A DNA stretch of 43,061 bases from Gloeobacterales cyanobacterium (GCA_038245785.1 JBBRSB010000037.1:1-43061); one strand, 5' to 3'. Numbered from the stretch's first letter, positions 17,743 through 37,636 are shown. The notes: a model not told the origin generated them from the sequence alone. Translations and numbers: made by a program.

Positions 17743-17750
17743 TTGAAGCC

Positions 17751-18425
17751 TCAAGCGAAGTGATAGGGGGGAAGCGCTCCATCCAGTTTTAGGGTTCCTT
17801 GGGTACACTGTTCTTGCCATCGCTGAACCTGGGGCAGAAGAGAGACTTCTCCTGCTCGCTCGGCCAGAAGATGGATTCTTTCGAAGCCCTCTTGGGCCTG
17901 GCCTGGGATCACAGGATAGAGGCTATGGGCTTTTTCGATGACCGTTTGCCACTGTGCCTGTTGGGCCGCTTGCTGTTCTGCCCGTGCCTGATGCTGCTGT
18001 TTTTTTGCGAGGAAGTACTGTTTTCCTTTCTGGTTAGTTTCTTCTGTTCCCTCTGTTTCTGGCATGGCGCTGAGGGGATGCGGAATAAATTTCAGGGTGT
18101 ACTCTGCTTTGCCGTTGAGTTTTTCTAATTTGGCTAAATACCGATCGGCATTTTGTTCTAAGTGGGCGAGTAATCCTTCTTCTGAAATGAAACGGGTTCC
18201 AAACCGTAGCGGCAGGACGGTTATTTGCCGAAAGAGATCACAGATTACGCGGTCATGGGTGAGGGCAGCGCGGATCAGCAATTGGTCATTAGTTTCTAAG
18301 GTTTCAAAAGATACGCCCGGTTCTACGATCGCCATCAGCCGCTCGTTGCCAATAATTTTTACCTGTTCTATCATCCCTTCTGGTCTGTCAAATTCTGTAG
18401 GGATTGCAAAAGCGTAGGTATACAC
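17751..18425 (-). CDS. GvpL/GvpF family gas vesicle protein
   Basis: HDRVI, TVLPLRFGT, GKQYFLAKK, C-terminal PPYHF. Confidence 0.88.
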   Translation of the reverse strand: MYTYAFAIPTEFDRPEGMIEQVKIIGNERLMAIVEPGVSFETLETNDQLLIRAALTHDRVICDLFRQITVLPLRFGTRFISEEGLLAHLEQNADRYLAKLEKLNGKAEYTLKFIPHPLSAMPETEGTEETNQKGKQYFLAKKQQHQARAEQQAAQQAQWQTVIEKAHSLYPVIPGQAQEGFERIHLLAERAGEVSLLPQVQRWQEQCTQGTLKLDGALPPYHFA

Positions 18426-18427
18426 GG

Positions 18428-19453
18428 CTAATTCTCTAAGGCTAAGACAGGAGATTCGCGTTGAGAACGGTTAACAATCAGTTCTATCGCCAGTTCCATT
18501 GCATGCATCATACTCTTACAGTCTGCTACACCCTGCCCGACAATATCGAAAGCCGTGCCGTGGTCTGGAGAGGTTCGGACTAAGGGCAATCCAATCGTGA
18601 CATTAACCGCTTGGTCAAAGGCCAAGAGCTTGAGGGGAATTAAGCCCTGGTCATGATAAAGGGCCAGATATCCTGTGTAGCTCTTGGCCTTTGTGTTCGG
18701 ATCATACCAGCGCTGACCGGGCTGTACCCAGAGCGTATCGGGAGGAATCGGACCCTGCACTTGCGGGTATTGAGCCAGGAGCGGGGCCAACCAGTCTACT
18801 TCTTCGGTACCGAGGGCTCCGGCTTCTCCTGCATGGGGATTCAGCCCTGCTACGGCAATCTGGGCATCAGGTTCTTTAAAATCTTGTTTCAGGGCTTCCA
18901 GAAATAAATCTAGTTTTTGACGAACGAGCTGGCTATTTAGCACATCGGGCACTTGGCGCAGAGGAATATGGGTAGTGGCTAAAAGTATCCGAAAAGCCCA
19001 GTTGGTATAGGGAGAGCGAGCATGGAACATCATGCCATAACGCTCTGAAACGCTTAGTTGAGCCAACAATTCTGTTTGCCCTGGATAGAAATGTCCAGCT
19101 TGATACCAGGCGGCTTTAGAAATAGGGGCCGTGACAATCCCATCAAATTGGCCAGCTATCGTTTCTAGAATTGCCGTTTTGAGATAACTAAAGCTGGCCG
19201 CACCGCTGCTGGCTTGGGCTGCACCTGGCGTAAAGGAGTCGCAGGGTAATTCCAAGAGGTCCCATTGGTTTGGGTCCGCCACATTTCCTAGATGTCCTAG
19301 GGCTTGATAGCAACGATGCAATATGCTGGCAGTGCCAACAAGAGTTATCTGGCACTGGGATGACCAATCCTTTTGGGCTAAGGCTTTGAGCACCACTTCT
19401 GGGCCAATACCGGCGGGGTCACCGATGGTAATTGCTATTTTTGGCAGAGTCAC
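18428..19453 (-). CDS. pdxA: 4-hydroxythreonine-4-phosphate dehydrogenase
   Basis: GDPAGIGPE, TAPISK, GLNPHAGE, YHDQGLIP, RTSPDHGTAFDI. Confidence 0.97.
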   Translation of the reverse strand: MTLPKIAITIGDPAGIGPEVVLKALAQKDWSSQCQITLVGTASILHRCYQALGHLGNVADPNQWDLLELPCDSFTPGAAQASSGAASFSYLKTAILETIAGQFDGIVTAPISKAAWYQAGHFYPGQTELLAQLSVSERYGMMFHARSPYTNWAFRILLATTHIPLRQVPDVLNSQLVRQKLDLFLEALKQDFKEPDAQIAVAGLNPHAGEAGALGTEEVDWLAPLLAQYPQVQGPIPPDTLWVQPGQRWYDPNTKAKSYTGYLALYHDQGLIPLKLLAFDQAVNVTIGLPLVRTSPDHGTAFDIVGQGVADCKSMMHAMELAIELIVNRSQRESPVLALEN

Positions 19454-19488
19454 GAGAGAACCAATTTCATCTAAGGCATACTGACATT

Positions 19489-20114
19489 CTAAAGTTTCTG
19501 GGCCTGGATTACCTGTAGGCTTCCTCCGGCATGGAGTTGCTTTTTACGAACGGTAAATCCTTGCTTTTGCAAAAGCGCTTCCGGTTTTTGTGCTATCCAC
19601 TGCCAAGACGTTTCTGTCTCAAAAAGCCACAGGAAGAGGGCCAAACCAGGCCAGATCAGCGGAATATCTGGCTGATGAAAATCAATGAAAGCGAATGTGC
19701 CGCCAGGTTTCAGGACTCGATAGACTTCACTAAAAATTTTCTGGATTTGAGCAGGCGTCATTTCATGCAAGGCCATGCTGGTGTGCACCAAATCAAATTG
19801 ATCGGCTTCGAGGGCAGTTTCTCCGCGCGTCCCAAAATGAATTTCCCTCTGGGAACACTAGCTTGCGCTGTTTCAATCGCTACAGGCGAACAGTCCAATC
19901 CCGTTAGGTCATAGCCTTCTTCCGCCAAAACTTGAGCAGCTAGACCACTGCCACAGCAAAGGTCTAAAGCTTTTTTCTCTGGGTTTGCAACAAGATCTTG
20001 CAAGGCTAGTTTTCTAAATCGTTGTTCACCGCCGACCAAGAGGCTTGTACTTTTGGAAACCAAGTTATAGAACCAGAGATGACGAAAGGCCCAAGTGCGT
20101 AAGATAGTTGCCAT
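19489..20114 (-). pseudogene. Class I SAM-dependent methyltransferase, frameshifted near 19811
   Basis: The 5' ORF has LDLCCGSG and the 3' ORF continues VHTSMALHE...RVLKPGG. Adding one T at CCC-T[T]C-GAA restores AEKLPFEADQFDLVHTS. Could be a sequencing error. Confidence 0.8.
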
Positions 20115-20117
20115 AAG
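20041..20117. repeat. Left copy of 77-bp direct repeat (methyltransferase 5' end)
   Basis: 67/77 identical to 33468-33544, ungapped. Confidence 0.93.
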
Positions 20118-20123
20118 ACTTGC

Positions 20124-21071
20124 TCACCCCAGTTTACAGTGCGCTTCTCCTCCCGCCTCAATCCAGCCCCGAATCAGTCCAGAGGTTGACTGAGCCGCAG
20201 CGCAGCGACCCGCACTATCGATCACAATCACCCCGCCCTCTCCATTAACCTTTGCAACCAAATACTGAATCCCTGCCTTCGCCGCAGCTTCTGCATCCAT
20301 TCCCTGAAACTGCACAAAATCAGAAATTGTTTTTGCCAACACCGTACGCAAAAATTGTTCTCCATAACCCGTCGCCGATACCGCACAGGTTTCACTGTCC
20401 GCAAATACGCCTGCCCCAATCACAGGCGTATCGCCCACCCGGCCCCAGCGCTTATTCACCAACCCCCCTGTTGATGTCGCTGCCGCTAGATTGCCTCGAA
20501 GGTCAAGGGCAACAGCTCCGACAGTACCCAGCTTCTGGGAGGGCTTGATCCGTTCATGATCTAAGGTTATGCGACCAGCGGCCTGAGCTTCTTTCAATTG
20601 CTTGAGCCGCACCTCGGTAACGAAGTAATCGTCCGGGAAGAGCTCTACCTGGCAATACTTCGCAAACTCGAGCGCCCCATCGCCCACCAGCATCACATGG
20701 TCACCCTGCTCTAGGACATGGCGAGCTAAGGCAATCGGATTTTTGATCTGCTTGACACAGGCCACAGCCCCAGCTCTCAGATTGCTCCCATCCATCAGCG
20801 CCGCATCCATTTCTACTTTTGCTTCAGCATTGAGCACCGACCCTCGACCGGCGTTGTACAGGGCATCGTCTTCGAGGAGGGTCACACAATACTCCACCAC
20901 ATCCAGCGCACGAGCCCCTTTTTCCAAACGTTGACGACCCTGTTCCAAGATCGCAGTAATGCTCTGCTTAAATTCTGCTTCGCTGGCCTCATATTTCAGA
21001 TCGTCAAGGGCACCAGCACCACCATGAATCATCAGGGAATAGGACTTGGACATCGTTGTTTTACCAGTCAC
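20124..21071 (-). CDS. iaaA: Isoaspartyl peptidase / L-asparaginase (Ntn hydrolase)
   Basis: IHGGAG, NAGRGS, GTVGAVA (Thr nucleophile), TSTGG, GRVGD, TGYGE. Start may be the ATG at MSKSY. Confidence 0.95.
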   Translation of the reverse strand: MTGKTTMSKSYSLMIHGGAGALDDLKYEASEAEFKQSITAILEQGRQRLEKGARALDVVEYCVTLLEDDALYNAGRGSVLNAEAKVEMDAALMDGSNLRAGAVACVKQIKNPIALARHVLEQGDHVMLVGDGALEFAKYCQVELFPDDYFVTEVRLKQLKEAQAAGRITLDHERIKPSQKLGTVGAVALDLRGNLAAATSTGGLVNKRWGRVGDTPVIGAGVFADSETCAVSATGYGEQFLRTVLAKTISDFVQFQGMDAEAAAKAGIQYLVAKVNGEGGVIVIDSAGRCAAAQSTSGLIRGWIEAGGEAHCKLG

Positions 21072-21140
21072 AAAGTGATACTTAAAGAATGCTCTTACAC
21101 GGCTGCGTTCAACGCTTAGAAACCGTATGAAAAGTCCTGC

Positions 21141-22859
21141 TTATTTTTCTTTTGCCTTCCTGCGCTGACGCACCTTTTGGGTAACTAGTTGAGGGAGGTC
21201 GCACCCAGGAATAAGCTCCTCCAGTATCTTAAAACGAATATGGTTAATGGCTAGATCTCCTAGCGAGATGTGCTCCGGCAAGTCATCCGCTGTCATTTTT
21301 GCAAACTTGATCCCTTTACCAATTTCGGTGTGGTACCAGGCTAAACCCATGAAGAAACGCTCAGGGTAGGGTCCCCGCTCAACGGTATCATCCATATTGG
21401 ATTCCATCGGCAGCCAGCCAAGGCCAGGCACATAAAACTCCAACCAAACATGGTTGAAATCTGGCTCTAGGGGCAGATGGCGGCGGTCAGGATGCGGGGG
21501 ACACTTGTAGCGCCCAATAGTGCGACAGGCAATACCGTTGAGGCGCGCTAAGGCGAGCAAGACCCCAACGTATTCACCGCAGGAGCCAACCCCACGCTCC
21601 AGAGCAATATCGGGGGTATCAATAGTGGGCTGAATACCATAGGAAAGGCGATCGTAGACGTAATTGCGAATTTTGAGCATCTTCCGCAGCACATTTGTTT
21701 CTGTGCCGATCGCCTCCTTTGCGGCCTTACGAATAGTGGTCGTATCCATCGCCAGGTCATCATCATCTACCAAGTAGCGTTGCTGGAACTCGGGTGGGAG
21801 TGGCAGGCTGTCATCAACATCAGCGGGAGATAGATAATACTTGAGGCTGTACATTTCGATAGTGGCTTTCCATCCCAGTAGGCCGCCTTGATGCGGCTGA
21901 ACCTGATCAAACTGGAAGACCGCAACCTTCTGCCCCTCCTCTTCTTCAATCGTAAACGGATGACCGATCGGTTCAATGTGGCGGACACGCTGACGCAGTG
22001 TATCGGACGGCAAGGCAATCCGCCATTCAACATGGTTGAGGGTCACCGCTTCGAGGGGTAGCAGTTCTTCCACGTAGGATAGCTCCACCAAATAACCGTT
22101 GGAGAGCGTGTAGTGCGCTGCTGGGTTGTGGTGAAGGTACAAAGGATGAATGAAGGTGCGATCGCGGAACGTCAGCTGATAGGGAAATTCTGCGTTGGGA
22201 TCATCCCGAATGTAGGGTTCTTCATGGGCATAGGCAATATAGCAAATTGGTTCCTGCCCATCCACAGGAGCATAAAAGTCAATGCCCGTAGGAGAGGTAA
22301 AGGGCGTGAGCGCGCTGGATTGAATCGCTCCCGTGGCGCAATCAAGGCAATAGACAGTTTGCTCCGTGCGATCGCATACCCACAGCGCCTCGTTAAACAC
22401 TGTCATTGTTTTAGAACCGACACCGGGCTGGGGCAAGCGCCTAACCAGCTTGCCCGTATCACGCTCAAAAACATGGATATAGCCGGACTTCTGACTGCTC
22501 ACGTACACAGTTGAGTCCCAGACTGTGACCCCATCAACCGGATGGGGAAGTCGAGTAAAGATCGTCGGCACTAGGTCTTGGCGATGGCACCAAAGCACCT
22601 CCTGCCCCTTCGCAAACCAGAATCTATCGTGCGAAAGGGTCAACCCTGTCACACCAATCCAGTCTGAAACACAGTAAGGGTTCAAAATGATCGTGTCGTT
22701 GGTGTGTGGATTAATACAGATCAGGTATCCCCGAATCGTATCAACCGTGAGTAAACGGTCTCCATCAGACGTAAGTCCTGACAGGGAATAAACACCGATA
22801 GGGCGAATCATAGAATGTTGCAATGAAGCATCAGGGAACGCGCTTTCAGGCTTCAGCAT
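21141..22859 (-). CDS. Beta-propeller plus transglutaminase-like domain protein
   Basis: N-terminal propeller-like repeats. C-terminal GSCGEY, ARLNGIACR, NHVWLEFYVPGLGWLPME. Confidence 0.88.
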   Translation of the reverse strand: MLKPESAFPDASLQHSMIRPIGVYSLSGLTSDGDRLLTVDTIRGYLICINPHTNDTIILNPYCVSDWIGVTGLTLSHDRFWFAKGQEVLWCHRQDLVPTIFTRLPHPVDGVTVWDSTVYVSSQKSGYIHVFERDTGKLVRRLPQPGVGSKTMTVFNEALWVCDRTEQTVYCLDCATGAIQSSALTPFTSPTGIDFYAPVDGQEPICYIAYAHEEPYIRDDPNAEFPYQLTFRDRTFIHPLYLHHNPAAHYTLSNGYLVELSYVEELLPLEAVTLNHVEWRIALPSDTLRQRVRHIEPIGHPFTIEEEEGQKVAVFQFDQVQPHQGGLLGWKATIEMYSLKYYLSPADVDDSLPLPPEFQQRYLVDDDDLAMDTTTIRKAAKEAIGTETNVLRKMLKIRNYVYDRLSYGIQPTIDTPDIALERGVGSCGEYVGVLLALARLNGIACRTIGRYKCPPHPDRRHLPLEPDFNHVWLEFYVPGLGWLPMESNMDDTVERGPYPERFFMGLAWYHTEIGKGIKFAKMTADDLPEHISLGDLAINHIRFKILEELIPGCDLPQLVTQKVRQRRKAKEK

Positions 22860-23194
22860 AGATCAACGGCTCAGCATGTTTATCAAACAATATAGCCCTC
22901 AGGTTAAACGCCGGTTGCCTTAGTGCTCTGGCCAGAGGACACTAGCACAAACCTAGTTCAGAAGGAAAACCAATTCTGCTATGGACAATACCTAGCGGGA
23001 ATAAGCCCGCTTCATCAGCATATTGTTTTGTTATTCTAAGGATGCAGCAAAACCATCCTGACCTATGCTTATAGAGCCAAGAATTTGTCAATATAAGTGG
23101 TATATGATGAGTCAATCGGGAGCCTTGAAGCCTTAGCTTCAGCAGGTATAACCTGGTGAGCAGCACCTCATCGAAGCGAAGGATACAGCGTTTA

Positions 23195-23428
23195 ATGAAA
23201 GTTGTTTATGACCCGGACAAAGATATTTTACAAATTGCCTTTATCGAAACGACCATTGAGGAAACAGCTCAGATCGCACCAGGATTGGTGTTTGATTATG
23301 ACGAAGATGGAAATGTCATTGGATTGGAACTCATAAAAGCATCAACAAGGATGGATAGTCCCTACGCCATTTCCTACCTCGTTGGCGACGCCAATGTTGA
23401 TAAGCCTCAGCCTAAAACTACAGAATAG
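23195..23428 (+). CDS. DUF2283 domain protein
   Basis: MKVVYDPDKDILQI...DYDEDGNVIGLEL..AS. Confidence 0.85.
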   Translation: MKVVYDPDKDILQIAFIETTIEETAQIAPGLVFDYDEDGNVIGLELIKASTRMDSPYAISYLVGDANVDKPQPKTTE

Positions 23429-23452
23429 GCACGCTATCCCCATTGCAATGTC

Positions 23453-23674
23453 TCAATCGTTTATCCAGGACTCTTTCCCGACCAAATCAATAATGTGGCC
23501 CCTCAGCAAGTAGTCGTTCGCTTCTAATAGCCGCTCAATGTCCTGCCATTGGCGATCTCCAAAATGTCTCCTCAGTTCAAAAATACGCTGCTGCCGACCT
23601 ACTAGGCCTCGTGTGACTAAAGCACGAACCTCATCCTGAAAGTCAGTGATGGAATATTGATGAACGGTAAGCAT
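23453..23674 (-). CDS. DUF4327 family protein
   Basis: YSI..FQDEVRALV..G.V.RQQ.I..L...W..IE..LE.NDYLLR..I.DL...E.W. Start is uncertain (ORF extends to 23752). Confidence 0.8.
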   Translation of the reverse strand: MLTVHQYSITDFQDEVRALVTRGLVGRQQRIFELRRHFGDRQWQDIERLLEANDYLLRGHIIDLVGKESWIND

Positions 23675-23770
23675 AACCGTGTCCCCGCAAATGAAATTAG
23701 AACAACTTACTGACATAGGCTGATCTTGAAGCAAATCAGTGTTGCTACTCACATAATGGCATCTTACATT

Positions 23771-23811
23771 GTATTTTACGTTACGGATTTAACTGGAGTT
23801 TAGGCTAAATT
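23771..23811 (+). promoter_or_regulatory. Putative NtcA box with -10 element upstream of argZ
   Basis: GTA-TTTTACGT-TAC (23771-23784), then TAAATT (TAN3T) after 21 nt. Confidence 0.55.
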
Positions 23812-24141
23812 AAAAACTGCGCTAAATGTAGTGGTTTGCAAGGCTTAAATTTTCACGAAAACACTATCTATGAAATTAGTCTAAAATCCAAATTTAATAT
23901 AGAATCTGTGGCGTCTGTGAATCTTAAGTTTTGGATGAGTGGCTTGGCCATGGGGTGGCCCAGAACACACATAATTCTAAGGAACCTACTCTGGAAAAAT
24001 TGATATTAATTTGTCAGTGCTTCATGGCTAGAAATTTTTGAAAGTAGCTACATCGTGAACAGCTATGATGGGCAAGACCAAATGCTGTAAATCCATCAAT
24101 CGCCCACTACGAAAGCAATCCTGTTTAAGGTTGAGTTAACC

Positions 24142-26244
24142 ATGACTGATTCAGTGCAAATCTTGATGTGTGCCCCGCATCATTATGATGTCGATTACGT
24201 CATCAATCCGTGGATGGAAGGAAATATTCATCGCTCATCCCGTGAGGATGCCCAGGCCCAGTGGAATAAGTTGTACCAAGTGCTGAAAACCTACGCCACG
24301 ATTGACCTGGTTGAACCTCAGCCGGGATGGCCAGATATGGTTTTTACGGCGAATGCCGGGTTGGTGTTGGGTGATACGGTTGTTCTCAGTCGCTTTTTCC
24401 ATCCTGAAAGACAGGGTGAAGAACCTTATTTTCAACAGTGGTTTGAAGACCAGGGCTACACGGTTCATACATTGCCCAAAAGTTTGCCGTTTGAAGGCGC
24501 AGGCGATGCACTGCTTGATCGAGCCGGCCGCTGGTTATGGGCTGGTTATGGATTTCGATCGGAACTCGATTCCCATCCCTACTTAGCCAAGTGGTTGGAT
24601 GTGGAGGTGCTGTCCCTGAGACTGGTAGATCAGCGATTTTATCACCTGGATACCTGCTTTTGTCCGCTCACGGATGGATATCTGCTGTACTACCCTCCGG
24701 CTTTTGATACCTATTCCAATCGACTGATTGAGTTGCGCGTTCCTGCTAAGAAACGCATTCCCATTGATGAAGTGGATGCGGTTAATTTCTCCTGTAACAC
24801 GGTGAATATTGGTCACGTTGTGGTAATGAACAAAGCCAGTGATAGCTTGAAGCAAATCTTGGGCGATCGCGGCTTTACCGTTGTCGAAACGCCGCTGACG
24901 GAATTCCTGAAAGCAGGTGGGGCTGCGAAGTGTTTGACCCTGCGGATGACGGAACCACGCCAAGAGTCTCCACAAGCGTCCACGATCCAAAGCCGCGTCA
25001 TTCATCTTGAAGGCCATTTGTTGGATACAGGGCTCGTGAATCGGGTCTTAGATACGATCGTGACTGGGGGAGGTAGTTTTCAAGTCTTGAACTTTAATCT
25101 CGGCGAGCAGCGCCAAGATGCCTCGGCGGCGGAGGTCAAAGTCTCAGCTCCTGATGCGGCAGTGATGGCTGACATCATGGGGCAACTCATCGACCTTGGA
25201 GCGATGAGTGTGACCGAGGAAGCCGCCGAAGCGAATCTAGAAGTGGTCACCCTGCCGGGAGTAGCTCCTGACGATTTCTATGTGACCACTATTTATCCCA
25301 CGGAAGTCTTGATTGAGGGTCAGTGGCTCAAAGTCCAGGGACAAAGGATGGACGGAGCGATTGCTCTAATACAATCCACTGAGGGAGTAGTTGCCCGTTG
25401 TAAGCTCCTGCGGGATCTAGAGGTAGGCGAAGCCGTAGTCGTTGGCAGCGAGGGAATTCGCACCAAACGCAACGCCAAGAACCTGAAACAGAGCACGACG
25501 GAAGAATTCAGCTTCATGGGGGCTGGGGTTTCCAGTGAGCGACGGGTGGAACTGGTCGTAGAACAAATCGCCTGGGATTTACGCCGGATTCGAGACCAGG
25601 GTGGCAAAGTTGTGGTCACGGCAGGTCCAGTTGTGATCCATACAGGTGGCAGCGAACACTTGAACAAACTGATTCGCGAGGGTTATGTCCACGCGCTGTT
25701 GGGGGGAAACGCGATCGCGGTCCACGACATCGAACAGTCGCTGATGGGAACCTCTTTGGGTGTAGATATGAAAAGGGGCATATCCGTTCAGGGGGGTCAC
25801 CGCCATCACCTCAAAGCAATCAATACCATTCGCCGCTGCGGCAGCATTGCCAATGCGGTGGAGCAGGGTGTACTGCGTAGCGGTGTGATGTACGAATGCG
25901 TCAAACACAACATTCCTTTTTGCCTAGCGGGATCAATTCGGGATGACGGGCCACTGCCAGAGACTAAGATGGATCTGCTGGAAGCGCAGACGGAGTATGC
26001 TCGCTTAATTGAAGGTGCTGACCTGATTTTGATGCTATCGAGCATGCTCCATTCCATTGGCGTGGGGAACATGACACCCGCTGGTGTGAAGATGGTATGT
26101 GTTGATATTAATCCGGCTGTGGTGACGAAGCTGAGCGATCGCGGCTCAATCGAGTCAATTGGAGTTGTGACCGATGTGGGGCTGTTCCTCAGCCTTTTGG
26201 TGCAACAACTCAATAAACTGACGGGAGAATATGCTCAGGTCTAG
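24142..26244 (+). CDS. argZ: Arginine dihydrolase / ornithine cyclodeaminase ArgZ (AgrE)
   Basis: Amidinotransferase domain (YVINPWM, DMVFTANAG, FYHLDTCF, GGAAKC) fused to LOR/SDH-type domains (GHLLD, VSSERRVE, AGSIRDDGPLP). Confidence 0.95.
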   Translation: MTDSVQILMCAPHHYDVDYVINPWMEGNIHRSSREDAQAQWNKLYQVLKTYATIDLVEPQPGWPDMVFTANAGLVLGDTVVLSRFFHPERQGEEPYFQQWFEDQGYTVHTLPKSLPFEGAGDALLDRAGRWLWAGYGFRSELDSHPYLAKWLDVEVLSLRLVDQRFYHLDTCFCPLTDGYLLYYPPAFDTYSNRLIELRVPAKKRIPIDEVDAVNFSCNTVNIGHVVVMNKASDSLKQILGDRGFTVVETPLTEFLKAGGAAKCLTLRMTEPRQESPQASTIQSRVIHLEGHLLDTGLVNRVLDTIVTGGGSFQVLNFNLGEQRQDASAAEVKVSAPDAAVMADIMGQLIDLGAMSVTEEAAEANLEVVTLPGVAPDDFYVTTIYPTEVLIEGQWLKVQGQRMDGAIALIQSTEGVVARCKLLRDLEVGEAVVVGSEGIRTKRNAKNLKQSTTEEFSFMGAGVSSERRVELVVEQIAWDLRRIRDQGGKVVVTAGPVVIHTGGSEHLNKLIREGYVHALLGGNAIAVHDIEQSLMGTSLGVDMKRGISVQGGHRHHLKAINTIRRCGSIANAVEQGVLRSGVMYECVKHNIPFCLAGSIRDDGPLPETKMDLLEAQTEYARLIEGADLILMLSSMLHSIGVGNMTPAGVKMVCVDINPAVVTKLSDRGSIESIGVVTDVGLFLSLLVQQLNKLTGEYAQV

Positions 26245-26437
26245 GGGACGTTGGCAAGACTTCAGGGAAAGCTGGAATTTCAAACCAAAATGATATAGTT
26301 TTTGCAATAGAGGCAGTCAGGTCAAGCTGTTCAGACCTATGTATTTGTTCATGTGCAAAAGATGTATTAACCTAGACTCAATCAAGCTTTGGTTTTGTTT
26401 CACCACAGTGATATGATGCAGCTCTTGGGGTCGTTCT

Positions 26438-27286
26438 ATGCTTGAGATAGAATCTCTTTCTATGGCAATTTCTACTCAGTACCCAGTAATGATTATTGGT
26501 GGAGCAGAAGACAAGGTCAACGAGCGCGGCATCTTGACCGCTTTCTTTGAAAGTGCTGGTGGAAAGCTGGCTACCATCGGCATCATTCCCTGCGCTTCAC
26601 AGGAGCAAAGTGTCCTTGGTGATCGCTACTACCAGATCTTTCAAGGAATGGGCGCTCAAGTACAGATACTTGATATTCGTCTTCCCAAAGAGTGTGATAA
26701 CGAGAGTTGGTTGAACGTTTTAGACAGCTGTACAGGTATTTTTGTCACCGGAGGAGATCAGCAGCGCCTGTGTGATCTGATTGGCAATAGCAAGTTTATC
26801 GAATCCATAAAAGAGAGAGTTCATCTGCGCAAACTCGTCTTAGCAGGAACAAGTGCTGGCGCTGCGATGATGGGTGAAAAGATGATTGCAGGGGGGAGCA
26901 GCGGTGAATCTCCAAACAGAGCTTTAGTCGATTTGGCAGATGGCTTAGGCATTATTCCTGAGCTGCTTGTGGATCAACATTTTCATAACCGCAATCGCAT
27001 GGCTCGATTGCTCAGTGCGATCGCCGCCTATCCTGAGAAGTTAGGGATTGGCATTGATGAGGACACCTGTGCCGCTTTTGAGGATGATGGAACGTTTGAA
27101 GTACTTGGTAAAGGAACTATCACCGTAATTGATCCGGGAGAGTTGACTCATACGAACTATCTTGAAGCGGGTGAAACATCTCCGCTCAGCCTTCATAAAC
27201 TCATCGTTCACGTGTTGAGTCAAGGGGATCGTTACCATTATCAACATCGCTCTGTCTTGCCACCTTTGGCGACGCCTGAAAATTAG
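26438..27286 (+). CDS. cphB: Cyanophycinase
   Basis: IIGGAEDK, TGGDQ, GTSAGA, DQHFHNRNRMARL, GIDEDT. Confidence 0.96.
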   Translation: MLEIESLSMAISTQYPVMIIGGAEDKVNERGILTAFFESAGGKLATIGIIPCASQEQSVLGDRYYQIFQGMGAQVQILDIRLPKECDNESWLNVLDSCTGIFVTGGDQQRLCDLIGNSKFIESIKERVHLRKLVLAGTSAGAAMMGEKMIAGGSSGESPNRALVDLADGLGIIPELLVDQHFHNRNRMARLLSAIAAYPEKLGIGIDEDTCAAFEDDGTFEVLGKGTITVIDPGELTHTNYLEAGETSPLSLHKLIVHVLSQGDRYHYQHRSVLPPLATPEN

Positions 27287-27346
27287 GCTACATTAATTGC
27301 TGCCGATTAGTATATTTACTGACTCGACAGCAACTTACGCTGGTCG

Positions 27347-27360
27347 GTAGTAATTGATAC
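27347..27360. promoter_or_regulatory. Putative NtcA box between cphB and cphA
   Basis: GTA-GTAATTGA-TAC followed by A. No clear -10 element at the canonical spacing. Confidence 0.55.
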
Positions 27361-27532
27361 AGAATTAGAAACTTAACCTGAGATTAAGACCCATATATCT
27401 ATCCATCTCCTATATTCAATGGATAAGCAGTGGGTTCGCAAACTCAGCCCTTCCGGGGCCTTATTTCAAAACTCTCAAAACTCAAGATTACATTTACTAC
27501 ATGCGAGATCAGCCGATGTTCTGCCTAAGATT

Positions 27533-30301
27533 ATGAAAATACTCCAAACCCAAACGCTCCGGGGACCAAACTACTGGAGCATTCGCCGCTCAAAGCTCAT
27601 TCTTGTCCGACTGGATTTGGAAGAGCTAGCCGATAGGCCTTCTGAAACCATTTCCGGATTTTATGACGGCCTCATAGAGATTTTGCCAAGCCTTGAGGAG
27701 CATTATTGTTCACCAGGGTGTCGGGGTGGATTTCTGAGCCGTGTGCTGGAAGGCACCATGATGGGGCATATCCTGGAGCATGTGGCTCTGGAGCTCCAAA
27801 ACCTAGCCGACATGGAAGTGGGGTATGGCAGCACCCGCGAGACGGCAACGCCAGGCATCTACCAAATTGTAGTTGAGTATCAAAATGAGCAGGCAGGGCG
27901 CTATGCAGTAAGAGCTGCTCTCCGTCTATGTCAGAGCATTGTGAATACGGGCACCTATCCCAAAGCTGAACTTGAAAAAGATTTAGATGGCTTGATGAAG
28001 CTGAGGGCTGAAGCGGCTTTGGGAGCAAGCACAGAGGCACTGATGCGAGAGGCAGAAACTCTTGGTATTTCCTGGATTCAGTTAGAGACGTGTGACCTAT
28101 TACAGTTTGGCTACGGCAAATATCAAAAACGGGTTCAGGCTGCTCTGACTTCTCACAGTAATATTTTGGGGGTTGAGCTTGCCTGCGATAAGGAAAGAAC
28201 CAAAAAGATCTTGGCTAATCTAGGGGTTCCCGTCCCGTTGGGCGTTGTTATCTACTCCTTCAGCGAGTTAGAAGGATCTATTAGTCGCTTGGGGGGCTAT
28301 CCGATTGTGATTAAGCCCTTAAACGGCAACCATGGTCGGGGGATTACTATAGATATTCAGTCCTGGGAGCAGGCGGAAGTGGCCTACGACCGTGCGCGGG
28401 ATGTTTCCAAGGGCGTGATTGTCGAACACTATTATCAGGGAAGAGATCACCGCATTTTAGTGGTTAATCATAAAGTGGTAGCGGTGGCAGAACGGGTGCC
28501 TGCCCACGTGGTCGGTAACGGCGTAGGGACCATCGCGGAGCTGGTTGGGCAGGAAAACCAAGATTGCCGTCGAGGCGAGGGCCACGACAATATCCTGACT
28601 CAGATTCAACTGGACGACGCCACCGATGAAATGCTTAGCCGTAAGGGTTTTACCCTCGATACTATTCTGCAACCAGGCGAGATCTGTTACCTTCGGGCAA
28701 CCGCTAATCTGAGCACGGGAGGGACTGCTATTGACCGTACCGACGATATCCACCCGGAAACCGTTTGGCTGGCAGAACGGGTCTCTCGCATCATTGACCT
28801 AGATGTGGCTGGTATTGATGTGATCACGACGGATATTACTAAGCCGCTGAGCGAGGCGGATGGCGTGATTGTGGAGGTCAATGCTGCCCCTGGGTTGCGG
28901 ATGCATACGGCTCCGAGCCAAGGAGTTGCCCGCAATGTTGCTGCTCCCATCCTTCATATGTTGTTTCCACCAGGAACGCCGACTCGGATTCCGATTGTGG
29001 CGGTTACAGGAACTAACGGCAAAACCACCACCACTCGTCTTATTGCTCATATCTTCAGCCAGATTTATGACGCTGTAGGTTTTACGACTACGGATGGCAT
29101 TTATATTGGCGATCACTTGGTGGAGAAGGGAGATACCACGGGTCCGCAAAGCGCCCAGATCATTCTGCAAGATCCGACGGTGGACATTGCGGTCTTGGAG
29201 ACAGCACGAGGCGGTATTCTTCGATCGGGTCTTGCCTTCTCACACTGTGACGTGGGGGTCGTCTTGAATGTGGCGGCGGATCATTTGGGTCTGGGGGACA
29301 TCGATACTATCGACCAAATGGCCAGGCTGAAAGCGGTGGTGGCAGAGGCTGTCCACGTTGATGGCTATGCGATACTCAATGCTGATGATGAGCGGGTCTC
29401 AGCCATGGCGGAGCAGGTTGTGGGGAAAGTTGCCTATTTCTCGATGGACCCAGATAACCCGTTGGTGCGCTCCCATGTTCAGCGGGGGAGAATGGCTGCG
29501 GTTTATGAAGAGGGCTATATTTCGATTTTGCAGAAGGATTGGGTTCACCGGATCGAGAAAGTGGAGCGCGTCCCTCTTACGTTGGGCGGACGGGCACCGT
29601 TCATGATAGCCAATGCCCTGGCAGCCAGTTTGGCTGCTTTTGTTCAGGGTGTAAAAGTCGAGCATATTCGGTCGGCGCTGCGCAGCTTCCGAGCATCGGC
29701 TCAGCAGACACCAGGACGGATGAATTTATTCAACTTCGGCCACTATCATGCGCTGGTAGACTACGCCCACAATCCAGCTGGGTACGAAGCGGTAGGCAGC
29801 TTTGTGAAAACCTGGTCTGGCCCTACCCTTGGTGTAGTCGGGGGACCGGGAGATCGTCGTGATCAAGATTTGATTGAATTGGGTTCCCTTTCGGCGACAT
29901 TTTTTGATCAGATTATTGTCAAAGAAGACGACGATAACCGAGGTCGTCCTCGAGGTAATGCGGCAGAGTTGATCGTCCAGGGTATCCATCAAGTTGCGTT
30001 GGATGCTGATTCTCCAGTCCCGCACGAGATCCGGCTGGATGAGACGGAGGCAATCGAATGGGCGTTAGACCATGCCCCAGAAAATGCCTTGGTAGTTATC
30101 TTCCCTGAAAGTGTCAGTCGGGCAATCGCACTCATTATGTCCCGAAGTCCAATTCCCGATGTCATAGAAGCGGCATTTTCATCAGAATCGAAGCAAGACA
30201 CTTTATCAATGCTAGATACACTATCGCGGAGAATAATAGCAGACCCAGCATCTAATGGCGTGGAAGTTAATGCCGAAATAGCTGTACACTCCAAATCCTG
30301 A
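27533..30301 (+). CDS. cphA: Cyanophycin synthetase (CphA1 type)
   Basis: MKIL.TQTLRGPNYWSI, HYCSPG..GGF, ATP-grasp KPLNGNHGRG, Mur-ligase GTNGKTTT, ETARGG, DYAHN. Confidence 0.97.
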   Translation: MKILQTQTLRGPNYWSIRRSKLILVRLDLEELADRPSETISGFYDGLIEILPSLEEHYCSPGCRGGFLSRVLEGTMMGHILEHVALELQNLADMEVGYGSTRETATPGIYQIVVEYQNEQAGRYAVRAALRLCQSIVNTGTYPKAELEKDLDGLMKLRAEAALGASTEALMREAETLGISWIQLETCDLLQFGYGKYQKRVQAALTSHSNILGVELACDKERTKKILANLGVPVPLGVVIYSFSELEGSISRLGGYPIVIKPLNGNHGRGITIDIQSWEQAEVAYDRARDVSKGVIVEHYYQGRDHRILVVNHKVVAVAERVPAHVVGNGVGTIAELVGQENQDCRRGEGHDNILTQIQLDDATDEMLSRKGFTLDTILQPGEICYLRATANLSTGGTAIDRTDDIHPETVWLAERVSRIIDLDVAGIDVITTDITKPLSEADGVIVEVNAAPGLRMHTAPSQGVARNVAAPILHMLFPPGTPTRIPIVAVTGTNGKTTTTRLIAHIFSQIYDAVGFTTTDGIYIGDHLVEKGDTTGPQSAQIILQDPTVDIAVLETARGGILRSGLAFSHCDVGVVLNVAADHLGLGDIDTIDQMARLKAVVAEAVHVDGYAILNADDERVSAMAEQVVGKVAYFSMDPDNPLVRSHVQRGRMAAVYEEGYISILQKDWVHRIEKVERVPLTLGGRAPFMIANALAASLAAFVQGVKVEHIRSALRSFRASAQQTPGRMNLFNFGHYHALVDYAHNPAGYEAVGSFVKTWSGPTLGVVGGPGDRRDQDLIELGSLSATFFDQIIVKEDDDNRGRPRGNAAELIVQGIHQVALDADSPVPHEIRLDETEAIEWALDHAPENALVVIFPESVSRAIALIMSRSPIPDVIEAAFSSESKQDTLSMLDTLSRRIIADPASNGVEVNAEIAVHSKS

Positions 30302-30429
30302 ACGATTTAGAACGCTTAGGGATATAGATTGGGTTGATCTGATAAATGATAGGTTTGAGGGGTGATAGTACTGCTATGCCCTGACGTTGAGAGGTGAAGA
30401 TTAATACTCATTTCTCAGGAGGCTGTTTG

Positions 30430-33400
30430 ATGATTCTCAATTCATCTCTTTCTAGTTCTGAACCCTCTATTCAGCCAGCGTACGAGGAAAAGACCCAAGC
30501 CCTTGCTCGCCAGCTGCTAGCGGAGACCACAGAAAAGCGCTCACTCTTTGCTAAAGTGCGGGACCAACTCCGCTGGGATGACAAACTACTCAGTTGGACG
30601 ATGGACAACCCTAGTCTGCGGGTGCAGCTGTTCCGTCTGATCGACTGTTTGCCATCTCTGACAACGAAGGCGGAAATTGCCCGTCACCTTCAGGAATATT
30701 TGAGCGATGCTTCCGTGGAATTGCCCCAGGCGCTCAAGAACCTGCTCAATTTTACGAGCCCAGACTCAATGCCAGGGCAAGTCGCTGCCACCACGCTGGC
30801 CACGGCCGTAGAAACCCTGGCTAGAAAATATATTGCAGGCGAAAACCTGAAGCAGGCGCTCAAGAGTATTGAACAACTTCGTAAACAGTCCATGACCTTC
30901 ACGATCGATGTACTGGGAGAGGCCGTGGTGACGGAAACGGAAGCCCAATCCTACCTGGATCAGTATTTGGAGTTAATGGGACAACTTACAGAAGCTTCCC
31001 AGCGATGGGCTCCGGCACCCCAGATGAATACTGCCGATGGGCTAGATTTATCCAAGGTGCAGGTTTCGGTAAAACTCACAGCCTTTTATTCCCAATTTGA
31101 TCCCCTAGACGTAAAGGGTTCTCAAGCGAAGGTGAGTGACCGTATCCGTATCCTCCTGCGTCGGGCGAAGGAAGTGGGAGCGGAAGTTCACTTTGACATG
31201 GAGCAGTATCGCTATAAAGGTGCAACGCTGGAGGCGCTTAAGCAGCTGCTGATGGAGGAAGAGTTTCGTGACCGCACCGACCTTGGCATAACCCTGCAAG
31301 CCTATCTACGGGATAGCTATCAGGATTTGCAGGATTTAATCCATTGGGTCAAACAGCGAAGCAATCCGATCACGGTGCGTTTGGTCAAAGGGGCTTATTG
31401 GGATCAAGAAACGATCATTGCCCGCCAAAATTATTGGCCGACTCCCGTCTACAACCAAAAATCTTCGACGGACGCTAATTTTGAGCGCATGACGCGACTG
31501 CTCCTGGAAAATCATGAGCATCTTTACGCTGCAATTGGTAGCCATAACGTTCGTTCTCAAGCCTACGCGATTGCGATCGCCCAAACCCTAAATATTCCCA
31601 AACGGCACCTTGAATTTCAAGTCCTCTATGGCATGGCCGATAATCTTGCCACAGCCCTCGCCAAACGGGGCCATCGCGTTCGGGTCTATTGTCCTTACGG
31701 TGACCTAATTCCAGGCATGGCCTACCTGATTCGACGCTTGTTAGAAAATACGGCTAATAGCTCTTTCTTACGTCAAAGCCTGACAGAGCATCCGATAGAA
31801 GATTTGTTGGCAGTTCCTGTTTGGGGAGAAGGCGACGAGGACGGCAGCGAAGTCAAACCTACGCCCCTTAGCTTATCGACTGCGACCGTCACTCAAATTA
31901 ATCCCTCAGCGGATACGGACTATGCGATTGCTCAATCCCGAGCGGATGTGCTCACTGCCATGGAGTCTGTGAAACAACAGTTGGGGCAAACCTATTGGCC
32001 GCTCATTAATGGAGAGCGAGTACAGACAGCGACGACGATTCAATCTGTCAATCCGTCAAATCCGGCAGAGATTGTGGGCACGGTCGGCCAAATTAATATC
32101 GAACAAGCAGATCAGGCCATAGCCGTGGCAAAAAAAGCCTTTCACTCCTGGCAACGGACGCCAGCGTGGGAACGTGCTGCCATCCTTCGACGAGCGGCAG
32201 ATTTACTGGAAGCACGTCGTCATGAACTCAATGCCTGGATGGTTTTTGAGGCAGGCAAACCGCTCAAACAAGCAGATGTAGAAGTGTCGGAAGCAGCAGA
32301 TTTCTGTCGGTACTACGCAGCGGAAATGGAGCGCTTAGATCCAGAAGTAGTCTATGACGTGGCCGGGGAGAGCAATCGCTACGGCTATCGGCCCAAGGGA
32401 ATTGTGTTGGTGATTTCCCCCTGGAACTTCCCCCTGGCCATTCCGACAGGGATGACCGTTGCTGCCTTGGTAACCGGCAACTGTGCGCTGCTGAAACCAG
32501 CGGCCGTTACGTCCGTGATAGCGGCAAAGCTGAGCGACATCTTGGTGGAGGCAGGCATTCCTAAAGGGGTTTTCCAGTACGTTCCCTGCAGCGGCTCCAG
32601 CGTGGGTACCCATCTAGTCAAACACCCGGATGTACAAATGATTGTGTTCACCGGGTCGCAGGAAGTAGGTTGTCAAATCTACGCTAATGCAGCTATCCTG
32701 CAACCGGGTCAAAAGCACTTGAAACGAGTAGTTGCCGAGATGGGAGGCAAAAACGCAATTCTTGTCGATGAAAGTGCTGATTTGGATCAAGCAGTGCAGG
32801 GGATCGTCTATTCTGCCTTCGGCTATAGCGGCCAAAAGTGTTCCGCCTGCTCCCGTGTGGTGGTGCTGGCACCGATTTATGATGCGTTCGTGACTCGGCT
32901 GGTGGAAGCGACGAAATCGTTGAATATTGGGAATGCTGCCGATCCAGGCACCAAGGTCGGGCCCGTGATTGATGCAGCTGCTCAGCAGCGGATTCGCGAT
33001 TACATTGCCAAAGGAAAAACGGAAGCCACGCTTGCCCTAGAGCTTCCTTCCCAAGAACCGGGTTATTTTGTTGGTCCAGCTATCTTTATAGATGTTGATC
33101 CGCAGGCCACGATTGCTCAGGAGGAAATCTTTGGTCCGGTGTTGTCGGTGATGAAAGCCCAGAATTTTGATCAGGCCTTGGCGATTGCGAACGGTACCCA
33201 CTACGCCCTCACGGGAGGACTCTATTCCCGCACGCCGTCACACATTCAGCAGGCGAAAGCAGAATTTGAGGTAGGCAATCTTTATATCAATCGCACCATT
33301 ACGGGAGCGGTCGTGGCAAGGCAACCCTTTGGTGGCTATAAACTATCGGGCGTTGGCTCCAAGGCTGGGGGGCCTGATTATTTGCTGCAATTCCTCGATC

Positions 33401-33462
33401 CACGCACGGTTACGGAGAATATTCAGCGGCAGGGATTTGCGCCGATCGAGGGAATGGAATAG
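30430..33462 (+). CDS. putA: Bifunctional proline dehydrogenase / P5C dehydrogenase
   Basis: VRLVKGAYWD, YLIRRLLENTAN, ISPWNFP, EMGGKN, GQKCSAC, QPFGG. Start is ATG 30430 or GTG 30394. Confidence 0.96.
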   Translation: MILNSSLSSSEPSIQPAYEEKTQALARQLLAETTEKRSLFAKVRDQLRWDDKLLSWTMDNPSLRVQLFRLIDCLPSLTTKAEIARHLQEYLSDASVELPQALKNLLNFTSPDSMPGQVAATTLATAVETLARKYIAGENLKQALKSIEQLRKQSMTFTIDVLGEAVVTETEAQSYLDQYLELMGQLTEASQRWAPAPQMNTADGLDLSKVQVSVKLTAFYSQFDPLDVKGSQAKVSDRIRILLRRAKEVGAEVHFDMEQYRYKGATLEALKQLLMEEEFRDRTDLGITLQAYLRDSYQDLQDLIHWVKQRSNPITVRLVKGAYWDQETIIARQNYWPTPVYNQKSSTDANFERMTRLLLENHEHLYAAIGSHNVRSQAYAIAIAQTLNIPKRHLEFQVLYGMADNLATALAKRGHRVRVYCPYGDLIPGMAYLIRRLLENTANSSFLRQSLTEHPIEDLLAVPVWGEGDEDGSEVKPTPLSLSTATVTQINPSADTDYAIAQSRADVLTAMESVKQQLGQTYWPLINGERVQTATTIQSVNPSNPAEIVGTVGQINIEQADQAIAVAKKAFHSWQRTPAWERAAILRRAADLLEARRHELNAWMVFEAGKPLKQADVEVSEAADFCRYYAAEMERLDPEVVYDVAGESNRYGYRPKGIVLVISPWNFPLAIPTGMTVAALVTGNCALLKPAAVTSVIAAKLSDILVEAGIPKGVFQYVPCSGSSVGTHLVKHPDVQMIVFTGSQEVGCQIYANAAILQPGQKHLKRVVAEMGGKNAILVDESADLDQAVQGIVYSAFGYSGQKCSACSRVVVLAPIYDAFVTRLVEATKSLNIGNAADPGTKVGPVIDAAAQQRIRDYIAKGKTEATLALELPSQEPGYFVGPAIFIDVDPQATIAQEEIFGPVLSVMKAQNFDQALAIANGTHYALTGGLYSRTPSHIQQAKAEFEVGNLYINRTITGAVVARQPFGGYKLSGVGSKAGGPDYLLQFLDPRTVTENIQRQGFAPIEGME

Positions 33463-33467
33463 GTGTA

Positions 33468-33544
33468 AGGCTCGTGCTTTTTGAAACCAAGTCATAAAAA
33501 TAGAGATGGCGAAAAGCCCAAGTGCGTAAGATCGTTGCCATAAG
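33468..33544 (-). pseudogene. Orphan copy of the methyltransferase 5' end (right direct repeat)
   Basis: Encodes MATILRTWAFRHLYFYDLVSKSTSL versus MATILRTWAFRHLWFYNLVSKSTSL at 20114, then runs into the putA 3' end. Confidence 0.9.
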
Positions 33545-33775
33545 TTCATGATGGAGGAGGAGTTTTTCCTATAAGTGGGCAAGAACCTTGTCCTAAAGTG
33601 AAAAACCAAAATGTTTGTCAAGGATATCGTTTTGAAAGCCTCTCTGGGCAAGGGATTCAAGTCGTACTGGCTAGAACAATGTGTCCTTTTTTAACTATCT
33701 TAAAATAAGACTACATTCCTTCCTCTAAAACAGTAAAACTGATCGTGCTAGGGTGAAAAAACTCTGAATGACAAT

Positions 33776-34150
33776 ATGGCTGTACCCACAACTCTGACCC
33801 CCAATTTCACACTTCCCTTAGTCGTTCTTACTTTGGGACTACTTAGCCTATTTATCTTGCCGCTGGTACCCGCGATTCTTCTGGTTCTCTTTGGCCTATT
33901 TCTGATCTACCAAACCGTGACCCTCCGCATTGTCTTTTTAGAAAAGACCTTTGCCGTTCAGCGCTCCGGTAAAACCCTGGTTGACTTTCCCTACGTCGAT
34001 TGGTTCACCTGGAAAATTCTTTGGCCAACCGTGCCAATTCTTCTTTATTTTAAGGAAGTGAAGAGTATCCATTTCATCCCTATGCTTTTTTCCCCCAAAG
34101 AATTGCGCCAGAATTTGGAACGCTTTGTTCCTCAGGCAGGAGCTAAGTGA
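33776..34150 (+). CDS. DUF3119 family membrane protein
   Basis: LFGLFL..QT..LR..F, FPY..W..W.I.W...PIL.YFKEVKSIHF.PMLF. Confidence 0.88.
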   Translation: MAVPTTLTPNFTLPLVVLTLGLLSLFILPLVPAILLVLFGLFLIYQTVTLRIVFLEKTFAVQRSGKTLVDFPYVDWFTWKILWPTVPILLYFKEVKSIHFIPMLFSPKELRQNLERFVPQAGAK

Positions 34151-34776
34151 ACGCTTGGACGGGGGCTTTGGGGATTCCTGTAGGCTATCTACTAGGCTCT
34201 ATTTCTAGCGGCTATTGGGCGGGAAAGTGGGTTAAAGGTATTGATATTCGTGAGTACGGCTCCAAATCAACGGGCGCAACCAATGTTCTCAGAGTTTTAG
34301 GAAAAGGACCCGCCGCTGCCGTTTTTGCCGCTGATGTCTTCAAAGGCGTCCTTGCTGTATTAGCAGCTTGGTCCTTGGGACAGGGCTCGGACCTTTGGGT
34401 GATTGCAGCAGGATTAGCCGCAATTTTGGGCCATAGTAAATCTATCTTTTTGAATTTCTCTGGTGGAAAATCGGTTGCGGTTAGTGTTGGGCTACTCTTA
34501 GCGATGGATTGGCGGGTAGGACTCTGTGCGCTTGCTTTATGGGGCACAGTTGTAGGCTTAACGCGCTGGGTTTCCCTGGGCTCCGTTCTAACAGCAATTG
34601 CCATTGCCCCGCTAATGTATTTTTTCGGCAATCCTGTTAGCTACATACTCTTCGGAACCGTCGGTGGTCTATATGTAATCATCCGCCACAAAACAAATAT
34701 GCAGCGTCTCTTGAAGGGGACGGAGCCTCGTATTGGCGAAAAAGTGAATATAGAATCTAAGCCATCGGATGCATAG
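34147..34776 (+). CDS. plsY: Glycerol-3-phosphate acyltransferase
   Basis: YLLGSI, GSKSTGATNVLR, GGKSVA, RHKTNMQRL..GTEP. Confidence 0.96.
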   Translation: MNAWTGALGIPVGYLLGSISSGYWAGKWVKGIDIREYGSKSTGATNVLRVLGKGPAAAVFAADVFKGVLAVLAAWSLGQGSDLWVIAAGLAAILGHSKSIFLNFSGGKSVAVSVGLLLAMDWRVGLCALALWGTVVGLTRWVSLGSVLTAIAIAPLMYFFGNPVSYILFGTVGGLYVIIRHKTNMQRLLKGTEPRIGEKVNIESKPSDA

Positions 34777-34782
34777 GCATAA

Positions 34783-34900
34783 GCCCTCATCCCCTAACCC
34801 CTTCTCCCAAAGTTGGGAGAAGGGGAACTGAGCCGAAAAATCTCTGTTTTAATTTATGCTCCCCTCTCCCGAAATCGGGAGAGGGGCTGGGGGAGAGGGC
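34783..34900. repeat. Cyanobacterial REP-like double-hairpin element
   Basis: Outer stem GCCCTC...GAGGGC encloses CCCCTTCTCCCAAAGTTGGGAGAAGGGG and CCCCTCTCCCGAAATCGGGAGAGGGG. Confidence 0.8.
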
Positions 34901-34923
34901 AAAAGTCCAATAACATTCACAAC

Positions 34924-35619
34924 TTAATTTTGACTGCCAAATAGTTGAAATTCATAAGCCTGTGGGTGGAGAAAACCATACGAGGAGATGAGTTTAAACT
35001 TTAGATATTTCGCAGTCACAGGCGAAAACGTAAATTCTTGATAAGGTGTCTTAAATGTTTTCAGATTTTTGGTCTGAAATTTTCCTATAGAATTAAACTT
35101 CCCTGTGGGAGAATCATTAGACTCTAGTAACTCAAACTCTTCGATATTGGAATCAGCGGTTTCTGAAATAAGCATAGTGAACTTATCAAAAGTGGCTGGC
35201 TGTTCACCTTCAAAAGCATAAACAGCTTCTTGTCCAATGCCGGAAGAAATCTGCTGCCAATCCTCTTTTCCATCTATAGTTGCAGACCAATCATCACTGG
35301 ATGCAACTGCTAAATGGCCACCATTCTCAGCGGTGAGAAGATTGATCGATTTTGAAATTATTTTTCGGAGATTCAATATTGGAGTCGTGATAATTGGATC
35401 TACTTTAGGAGCTTCCAGAGCGGAAGTAATAGGGGCATTAGAAATCTCCTTCTTGGCTGGATCACTCTGTGGTAATGGAGTTGATCCTTTACCTGCCAGA
35501 AAACCTGATTGATTGAGTGCCAAAATTAGGCCACCAATAGCAGTGATCACAGCGCCAGTGCCTGTAAGTATTCCTGGCAGCGTACTCCACCAATTTTGGA
35601 CCTTCTGCTCCTGCTCCAT
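34924..35619 (-). CDS. Membrane-anchored discoidin/F5-8 type C-like protein
   Basis: N-terminal WWSTLPGILTG TM segment, Pro-rich linker, C-terminal PVTAKYLKFKLISSYG...EFQLFG. Confidence 0.7.
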   Translation of the reverse strand: MEQEQKVQNWWSTLPGILTGTGAVITAIGGLILALNQSGFLAGKGSTPLPQSDPAKKEISNAPITSALEAPKVDPIITTPILNLRKIISKSINLLTAENGGHLAVASSDDWSATIDGKEDWQQISSGIGQEAVYAFEGEQPATFDKFTMLISETADSNIEEFELLESNDSPTGKFNSIGKFQTKNLKTFKTPYQEFTFSPVTAKYLKFKLISSYGFLHPQAYEFQLFGSQN

Positions 35620-37629: not shown

Positions 37630-37636
37630 GCAACAG

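Follow-up and report, generated by a model that had tools for sequence, protein, structure and literature searches.

Here we describe a 13.35-kb block of foreign genes lodged in the 5' end of a host methyltransferase gene in a Gloeobacterales cyanobacterium. The window analysed is a stretch of 43,061 nt (GCA_038245785.1 JBBRSB010000037.1:1-43061) belonging to a 5.0-Mb, metagenome-type assembly in 255 contigs (G000 below). As predicted from its genes, the block is a complete cyanophycin/arginine cassette, a nitrogen-storage pathway, and it is enclosed by diverged direct repeats of the first methyltransferase codons. The explanation that we favour, with modest confidence, is integration without an integrase: host recombination within the methyltransferase end would have brought in cargo and gene end together from a sister strain, after an unseen joining event.

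The two repeat copies, at 20041-20117 and 33468-33544, align without gaps at 67 of 77 positions and lie 13,427 bp apart. They were recovered as a pair when the genome was searched against itself with BLAST (E=5e-18), and the 5.0-Mb assembly holds no third copy, which makes this >30-bp repeat unique to the pair. Each copy spans codons 1-25 of the methyltransferase, encoded on the minus strand, plus three upstream bases; the left copy is joined to the gene body, and the right copy is stranded on the native upstream DNA. Seven of the ten differences are synonymous and three are non-synonymous (W14Y, through two bases, and N17D). A gap of 6 bases separates the iaaA stop codon from the left copy, and one of 5 bases separates the putA stop codon from the right copy. 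Recomputed in this way, the repeat, its synonymous majority and the trimming of the cargo to about 6 bp of both stops all agree with the initial annotation, as does the absence of mobility genes from the edges: a Pfam scan of 35 open reading frames (ORFs) in the window found no integrase or transposase family save an IS5-like transposase at 31-1368, and the window's sole tRNA is at 11689. Comparison of 19000-35000 with Rfam gave three matches, all far under the gathering score, and folding of either copy gave z-scores of 0.02-0.95, hence no structure that accounts for the conservation.

That the block is an insertion is borne out by its absence from relatives. G001 and G002, the sole further genomes of the genus, lack the insert, as does a metagenome contig (L035); all three carry a single repeat copy, in the order pdxA, intact 208-aa methyltransferase, short spacer (78 bp in G002) and DUF3119-plsY. 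These empty sites come from other species, ~79% identical to the window; a metagenome scan for closer relatives returned only L035, which is 98% identical to G001, and one unrelated locus.

A chimera of two strains, conceivable in a metagenome-type assembly of 255 contigs, deserves almost no credence as the origin of the repeat. A separately assembled 28.7-kb contig from sequencing run X1 covers 16700-36600 without differences and at flat depth; X1 may be the source data of the assembly, and the contig would then add no independent biological evidence. Relatives occur in runs X2, X4 and X6, which come from three further studies; most of their listed long pieces show 91-94% identity, over cargo and flanks alike. 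No RNA run was listed among those containing the sequence. In two of the three, X2 and X4, the stranded copy has changes of its own, having lost 2 bases at 33502. A contig with the same depth value (14.1) also covers 33351 within putA in X4, and we take this to be a single contig that crosses the right junction. Since relatives carry cargo, flanks and the decayed right copy, the insertion is old and has been inherited with its flanks. An excised circle and an empty joint, for which the initial annotation had advised a check, were sought in the assembled contigs that make up all of the run evidence; neither was among the 15 of 52 joints listed, and contigs lose rare forms.

To place the two copies, we compared them with the empty-site alleles. 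Relative to G001 and G002 they have several derived bases in common, which assigns both to the window's own clade and not to the source of the cargo; the second allele that the initial annotation proposed is thus not from that source. Polarised on the congeners, the in-gene copy carries four changes, all synonymous, and the stranded copy three synonymous changes and all three non-synonymous ones.

This pattern bears on a simpler history, a one-step insertion in which the resident 77-bp target was duplicated exactly, through repair of a staggered break or replication template switching that captured foreign DNA, and the stranded copy then decayed, with chance or later conversion supplying the extra synonymous signal. 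A single event would suffice, both copies belong to the host lineage and have the same three upstream bases, and the reading is the one given in the accessible text of PMC2853133. The concentration of non-synonymous changes in the stranded copy, which has suffered a deletion in relatives, implies that decay explains part of the pattern. Without conversion, however, duplication plus neutral decay predicts mostly non-synonymous differences: at least seven synonymous differences in ten have P 0.016-0.06 (binomial, transition bias 1-5) or, by simulation of the same model, P 0.004-0.017. Simulated allelic divergence followed by a shorter decay gives P 0.04-0.26. We therefore treat one-step duplication as a real, though clearly lesser, possibility. 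Because the synonymous excess beats the duplication-plus-decay prediction, the copies were probably joined by homologous recombination, and there is moderate support for their having once been functional alleles. The initial annotation had read the synonymous bias as coding selection on both copies; its excess stands (P 0.004-0.06), but the case is weaker than that annotation made it, as all non-synonymous changes are in the stranded copy. The signal may fit an allele that arrived with the cargo and one exchanged later equally well.

Direct repeats of this kind recur across the genome. Two-copy repeats of 25-400 bp, 78-99% identical and 0.3-20 kb apart, numbered 58 direct and 6 inverted in a survey that covered G000 alone, without a control genome. 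With the distance extended to 60 kb there were 59 pairs: 33 in which a single copy lay within a gene, 14 with both copies in genes and 12 with neither, as sorted by ad hoc gene calls with the methyltransferase target entered by hand. Pooled, the 33 gene/stranded pairs hold 217 synonymous and 179 non-synonymous differences. Their synonymous share exceeds that expected from decay only (0.35-0.41, P<=2e-8), with 25 of the 33 pairs above the decay value, and falls below that expected had both copies been selected (0.79-0.82, also rejected). The pooled pairs thus reject one-step duplication as well, though the set is mixed and can include remnants of tandem paralogues, which are also rich in synonymous differences; this counts against generality.

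Thirteen of the repeat-bounded blocks contain 61 ORFs, of which 44 were scanned. Among the matches listed (the best five families per protein) are MmeI-like and Mrr restriction genes, sucrose-phosphate synthase and reductases; no integrase or transposase is among the matches listed for these 44 ORFs. At 212246-229058 of contig C2, an Mrr gene together with DUF499, DUF3780, DUF1156 and SNF2 genes lies between 57-bp repeats (96% identical), and at 54871-59555 of contig C4 a split MmeI-like gene lies between 56-bp repeats (80%). Six small contigs (C66, C67, C73, C74, C91 and C151; 1.7-6.8 kb) have identical 141-bp ends; they are probably circular plasmids or assembly overlaps and were excluded from the repeat counts. 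A second direct repeat of the same type lies in the window itself, where the 3' end of a GNAT gene is repeated around a DUF4142 gene (36675-37810). Its copies, at 36675-36734 and 37750-37810 (61 bp, 88.5% identical), differ by three synonymous changes, one non-synonymous change and one indel, and no empty site was found for it. Tentatively, the lineage may have a working class of integrase-free cassettes, in which blocks bounded by gene ends move between sister strains and species through host recombination, the end serving as an attachment site with an allele swap; dozens of such events, the regain of nitrogen storage included, would make up much of the genome's gene gain. We offer this extension as speculative.

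To trace the cargo, we compared its arginine dihydrolase, ArgZ, with other copies. The window protein is 65-69% identical to the ten full-length copies from its own order, 84-86% identical to those of Chamaesiphon and 90% identical to those of Acaryochloridaceae and Thermosynechococcaceae assemblies. A quick tree of 46 rows places it within the copies of these three groups, and an approximately unbiased (AU) test on 25 rows rejects its grouping with its own order (p=0.00043). The same eight-gene order is found in one further locus (L063) and seven of the eight genes in three more (L053, L061 and L088) among the 80 best argZ loci, many of which end early at contig ends. The HIP1 octamer occurs 7 times in the cargo versus 0.65 expected at the genome rate (P 5e-6). 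In the order's other two families, argZ, cphA and putA are present in every one of the 11 genomes; in G002, which is 97% complete, none of the three was found with these queries, unlike in the order's other 13 genomes. These comparisons show the host lineage, as judged by sequence, to be without the order's native argZ, cphA and putA and to carry foreign versions in a gene order of other cyanobacterial families.

G001 has the cargo too, 85-87% identical, but split into an iaaA-argZ and a cphB-putA piece that lie at different sites from that in the window; no bounding repeats were found around either piece. Synonymous divergence (dS) between the window and G001 is 0.35-0.59 for the cargo versus 0.93-1.77 for six flanking gene stretches; between G001 and G002 it is 0.22-0.44. 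The low cargo values imply that the cassette crossed between lineages of the genus, or that one source fed both, long after their split. At 23785-23895 the cargo contains a non-coding element of ~105 bp, resembling a miniature inverted-repeat transposable element, with inverted ends of ~17 bp, which occupies the same cargo position in G001. It occurs once in G000, with three copies found in G001 and four in G002; loci L030, L031, L032, L033 and L034 carry it. The remaining 79 argZ loci showed no copy, and matches in 398 other genomes were limited to weak ones in 2, so that it is nearly limited to the genus; it has no Rfam match. Because the cargo carries this small repeat, otherwise typical of G001 and G002, the cassette probably came by way of a congener lineage, and the simplest reading of the sequences is a route from an outside donor to the G001/G002 side and from there to the window's clade. 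Alternatively, the element may have spread within G001 and G002 after arrival.

The same data speak to an internal rearrangement, in which a cassette already present in the lineage was moved by duplication and deletion and the repeat is the scar. The genomes are heavily shuffled, G001 has the genes at other sites, and local direct repeats can be remnants of tandem duplication. A cargo dS to G001 under half that of the flanking genes is nevertheless not simply vertical, the intact gene order matches that of outside taxa, and no leftover cargo was found elsewhere in the assembly; we consider such a rearrangement very improbable.

For the integration that we favour, these observations suggest the following course. 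In a host lineage bearing foreign in place of native argZ, cphA and putA, the cassette would first have resided in a congener lineage, gained the small repeat there and, well after the species had separated, reached the window's clade. There, break repair, template switching or another illegitimate event would have set it beside the methyltransferase start in one member of the clade. From that sister strain, as the synonymous excess suggests, cassette and gene end would have entered the window's ancestor by recombination within the gene end, either through a single crossover of a circle or through a homologous anchor in the gene combined with an illegitimate far end. The gene would thereafter have read from one allele's 5' end, leaving the other stranded with the old promoter region. 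Since then the gene would have stayed under selection while the stranded copy decayed and the block was passed on with its flanks, as the contigs of relatives in part display. A full-length ComEC-family gene (a 726-aa open frame) is present in the genome.

Selection would best account for the very tight left junction: having lost its upstream region, methyltransferase-pdxA would be read through from the outward-facing iaaA operon. Both end operons face outward, into single-copy pdxA and plsY, so junctions at stop codons would be favoured. A promoter and terminator scan of 19400-34200 was at or below chance (6 versus 14.9 and 18 versus 13.9), and no terminator was called in the gap from iaaA to the methyltransferase or in that from putA to the right copy; this lack does not count as evidence of read-through.

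Several points weigh against this account. The joining event is not seen in the data, and ten differences are few. Taken alone, the stranded copy does not reject neutral change (P 0.10-0.20), and a cluster of 10 bases, which may be one event, contains four of the six changes in it. Matching of the copies to empty-site alleles, which the initial annotation had advised, placed both equally far from the congeners (~79%) and so favours neither as the incoming one. Later gene conversion from empty-site alleles would yield the same synonymous excess. The cargo of G001, split, elsewhere and without bounding repeats, implies that the block does not form a mobile unit of its own. Finally, of the other repeat-bounded blocks, 13 were fetched and 7 searched, and none of the 7 had a clean empty site in G001 or G002, because the congeners are too distant and shuffled.

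The SXT/R391 element integrates at the 5' end of prfC. One alternative is a relic of a dusA- or prfC-type site-specific element that supplied a new 5' end, its integrase having since been lost by deletion or having acted in trans. Such a relic would share its geometry with the block: in dusA-associated islands, as set out in the accessible text of PMC4482086, the target is likewise the 5' end of a protein gene, the island side provides the new 5' end and the old one forms the far boundary. Elsewhere in G000 there are 12 tyrosine-recombinase matches, none on this contig. Within those islands the integrase is described as the sole universal feature, with a 21-bp att consensus and excision as a circle (PMC4482086, same text), whereas we found no integrase or att consensus here, and no circle joint among the 15 of 52 listed. 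Neither the block nor its counterpart in G001 contains an integrase or a remnant of one. In the 25 best of 42 other loci with the same gene, 0 of 31 ORFs in the 1.5-kb upstream flanks match an integrase, and no second 5' end lies within 1.5 kb at these 25 loci. The unrelated targets of the genome's other direct repeats, 29-399 bp long, are unlike a single att site, and the G001 cargo is split between other sites. We regard a site-specific remnant as unlikely, and the initial annotation's suggestion of a recombinase acting in trans gained no support.

Insertion with long target duplication was reportedly first described by Nobusato et al. in 2000. The accessible text of Furuta, Abe and Kobayashi 2010 (PMC2853133) places that first description in Helicobacter pylori, by the same group (its ref. 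37), and characterises such insertions by a repeat >30 bp, an insert <20 kb, no other mobile element and an empty site in a relative. According to that text, the repeats commonly extend over a start or stop codon without breaking the target gene, they are imperfect, and one target was frameshifted later. Its cases include Microcystis and come mostly from naturally competent species; the survey was limited to restriction-modification cargo, with nuclease breaks suggested as the cause, and release and re-infection are said to have no experimental evidence behind them. The structure in the window, with its empty site, unique 77-bp repeat and 13.35-kb insert free of integrase and transposase, belongs to this published class and is not a new route of integration. 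It differs in its cargo, a nuclease-free metabolic pathway and not a restriction-modification system (other repeat-bounded blocks of G000 do carry MmeI-like and Mrr genes), and in the coding-selection signal of its copies, a test that does not appear in the accessible text of PMC2853133. The metabolic cargo and the allele signal are what is new here. We found no paper on the eight-gene cassette or on such repeats in this group, in a search outside which most subscription literature lay.

Homology-facilitated illegitimate recombination is usually reported with loss of recipient DNA and not with duplication. It has been applied to displaced gene ends, and the accessible text of PMC5361080 indicates that a homologous anchor plus an illegitimate join can add foreign DNA without an integrase and strand a gene end, which would resemble the window. 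It differs in needing a donor in which the cargo already lies beside the anchor. With the G001 flanks as a proxy for the true donor, microhomology at the illegitimate join, judged by eye, comes to at most 1-4 bases.

The cargo itself comprises eight genes. On the left are a gene for an iaaA-like isoaspartyl peptidase (20124-21071, minus strand; Pfam Asparaginase_2, with an NCBIfam beta-aspartyl-peptidase match under the cut-off) and, from the Pfam scan, genes for a transglutaminase-like protein (21141-22859, minus), DUF2283 (23156-23428, plus) and DUF4327 (23453-23752, minus). On the plus strand follow argZ, for arginine dihydrolase/ornithine cyclodeaminase (24142-26244), cphB, for cyanophycinase (26438-27286), and cphA, for cyanophycin synthetase (27419-30301, likely start 27533), all three above the NCBIfam cut-off, and putA, for proline dehydrogenase/P5C dehydrogenase (30394-33462; Pfam, with NCBIfam matches partly under the cut-off). 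The argZ, cphB, cphA, putA and iaaA-like genes are each single-copy in G000. CphA stores nitrogen as cyanophycin, CphB and IaaA free arginine and aspartate from it, and ArgZ and PutA carry arginine via ornithine and proline to glutamate. The two-step breakdown of cyanophycin includes IaaA, and synthetase, cyanophycinase and isoaspartyl peptidase, as one pathway, can cluster as cphA-cphB with iaaA (PMC9974463, accessible text). The present cassette differs from such clusters in adding argZ, putA, the transglutaminase-like gene, DUF2283 and DUF4327. An NtcA-type motif had 6 matches versus 3.9 by chance. In G001, the ORF after argZ (L025 7485-8621, G001:C31) resembles, by eye, the succinylglutamate desuccinylase family, members of which can be cyanophycin dipeptide hydrolases (PMC9974463, same text).

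The target gene (19489-20114, minus strand) is predicted to encode a class I S-adenosylmethionine (SAM) methyltransferase conserved in cyanobacteria and reached no NCBIfam family cut-off; it is present in 43 of 61 genomes searched. In the window it is frameshifted by a one-base deletion near 19811, whereas G001, G002 and the X2 relative have an unbroken frame; as X2 has the missing base, the frameshift is recent and strain-specific. Its non-synonymous divergence (dN) is 0.08-0.10 versus a dS of 1.0-1.8, which indicates that the gene was held at low dN/dS until the frameshift. Downstream lies pdxA (18428-19453, minus). A lone gvpL/gvpF gas-vesicle gene stands between pdxA and fabD at 17751-18425; in G001 these two are adjacent. 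Beyond the right copy are the native divergent intergenic region (33545-33775; 234 bp versus 78 bp in G002) and DUF3119 with plsY (33776-34776, plus), which adjoin the methyltransferase at empty sites. The G002 alignment continues to 33552 and restarts at 33746, with ~155 extra window bases between. About 1 kb at 34745-35752 is missing from G002 and from the X2 and X4 relatives; it holds a Sad1/UNC-like gene and, at 34783-34900, a hairpin repeat, and appears to be a younger insertion without a long target repeat. Two Cu/Zn superoxide dismutase genes stand in tandem at 14360-16547 and have three domains altogether (repeat families D1-D4).

Entry of large gene blocks without integrase or transposase is poorly documented beyond a few laboratory systems, and this case shows that the cargo of an insertion with long target duplication can be a full metabolic pathway as well as restriction-modification genes. 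Comparing synonymous with non-synonymous differences between repeat copies offers a simple sequence test for distinguishing a copied target from recombined alleles. The genome-wide repeat pattern is the part most worth following: if the cassette-class reading were true, the synonymous bias would be the evidence missing for the 'release and re-infect' step in the accessible text of PMC2853133. For the organisms, cyanophycin and arginine metabolism appears to have been lost and horizontally regained within one genus, in which one congener is without the genes in these searches and two members carry a foreign cassette at different sites. In this group, cphA, argZ and putA are thus unsafe as vertical markers.

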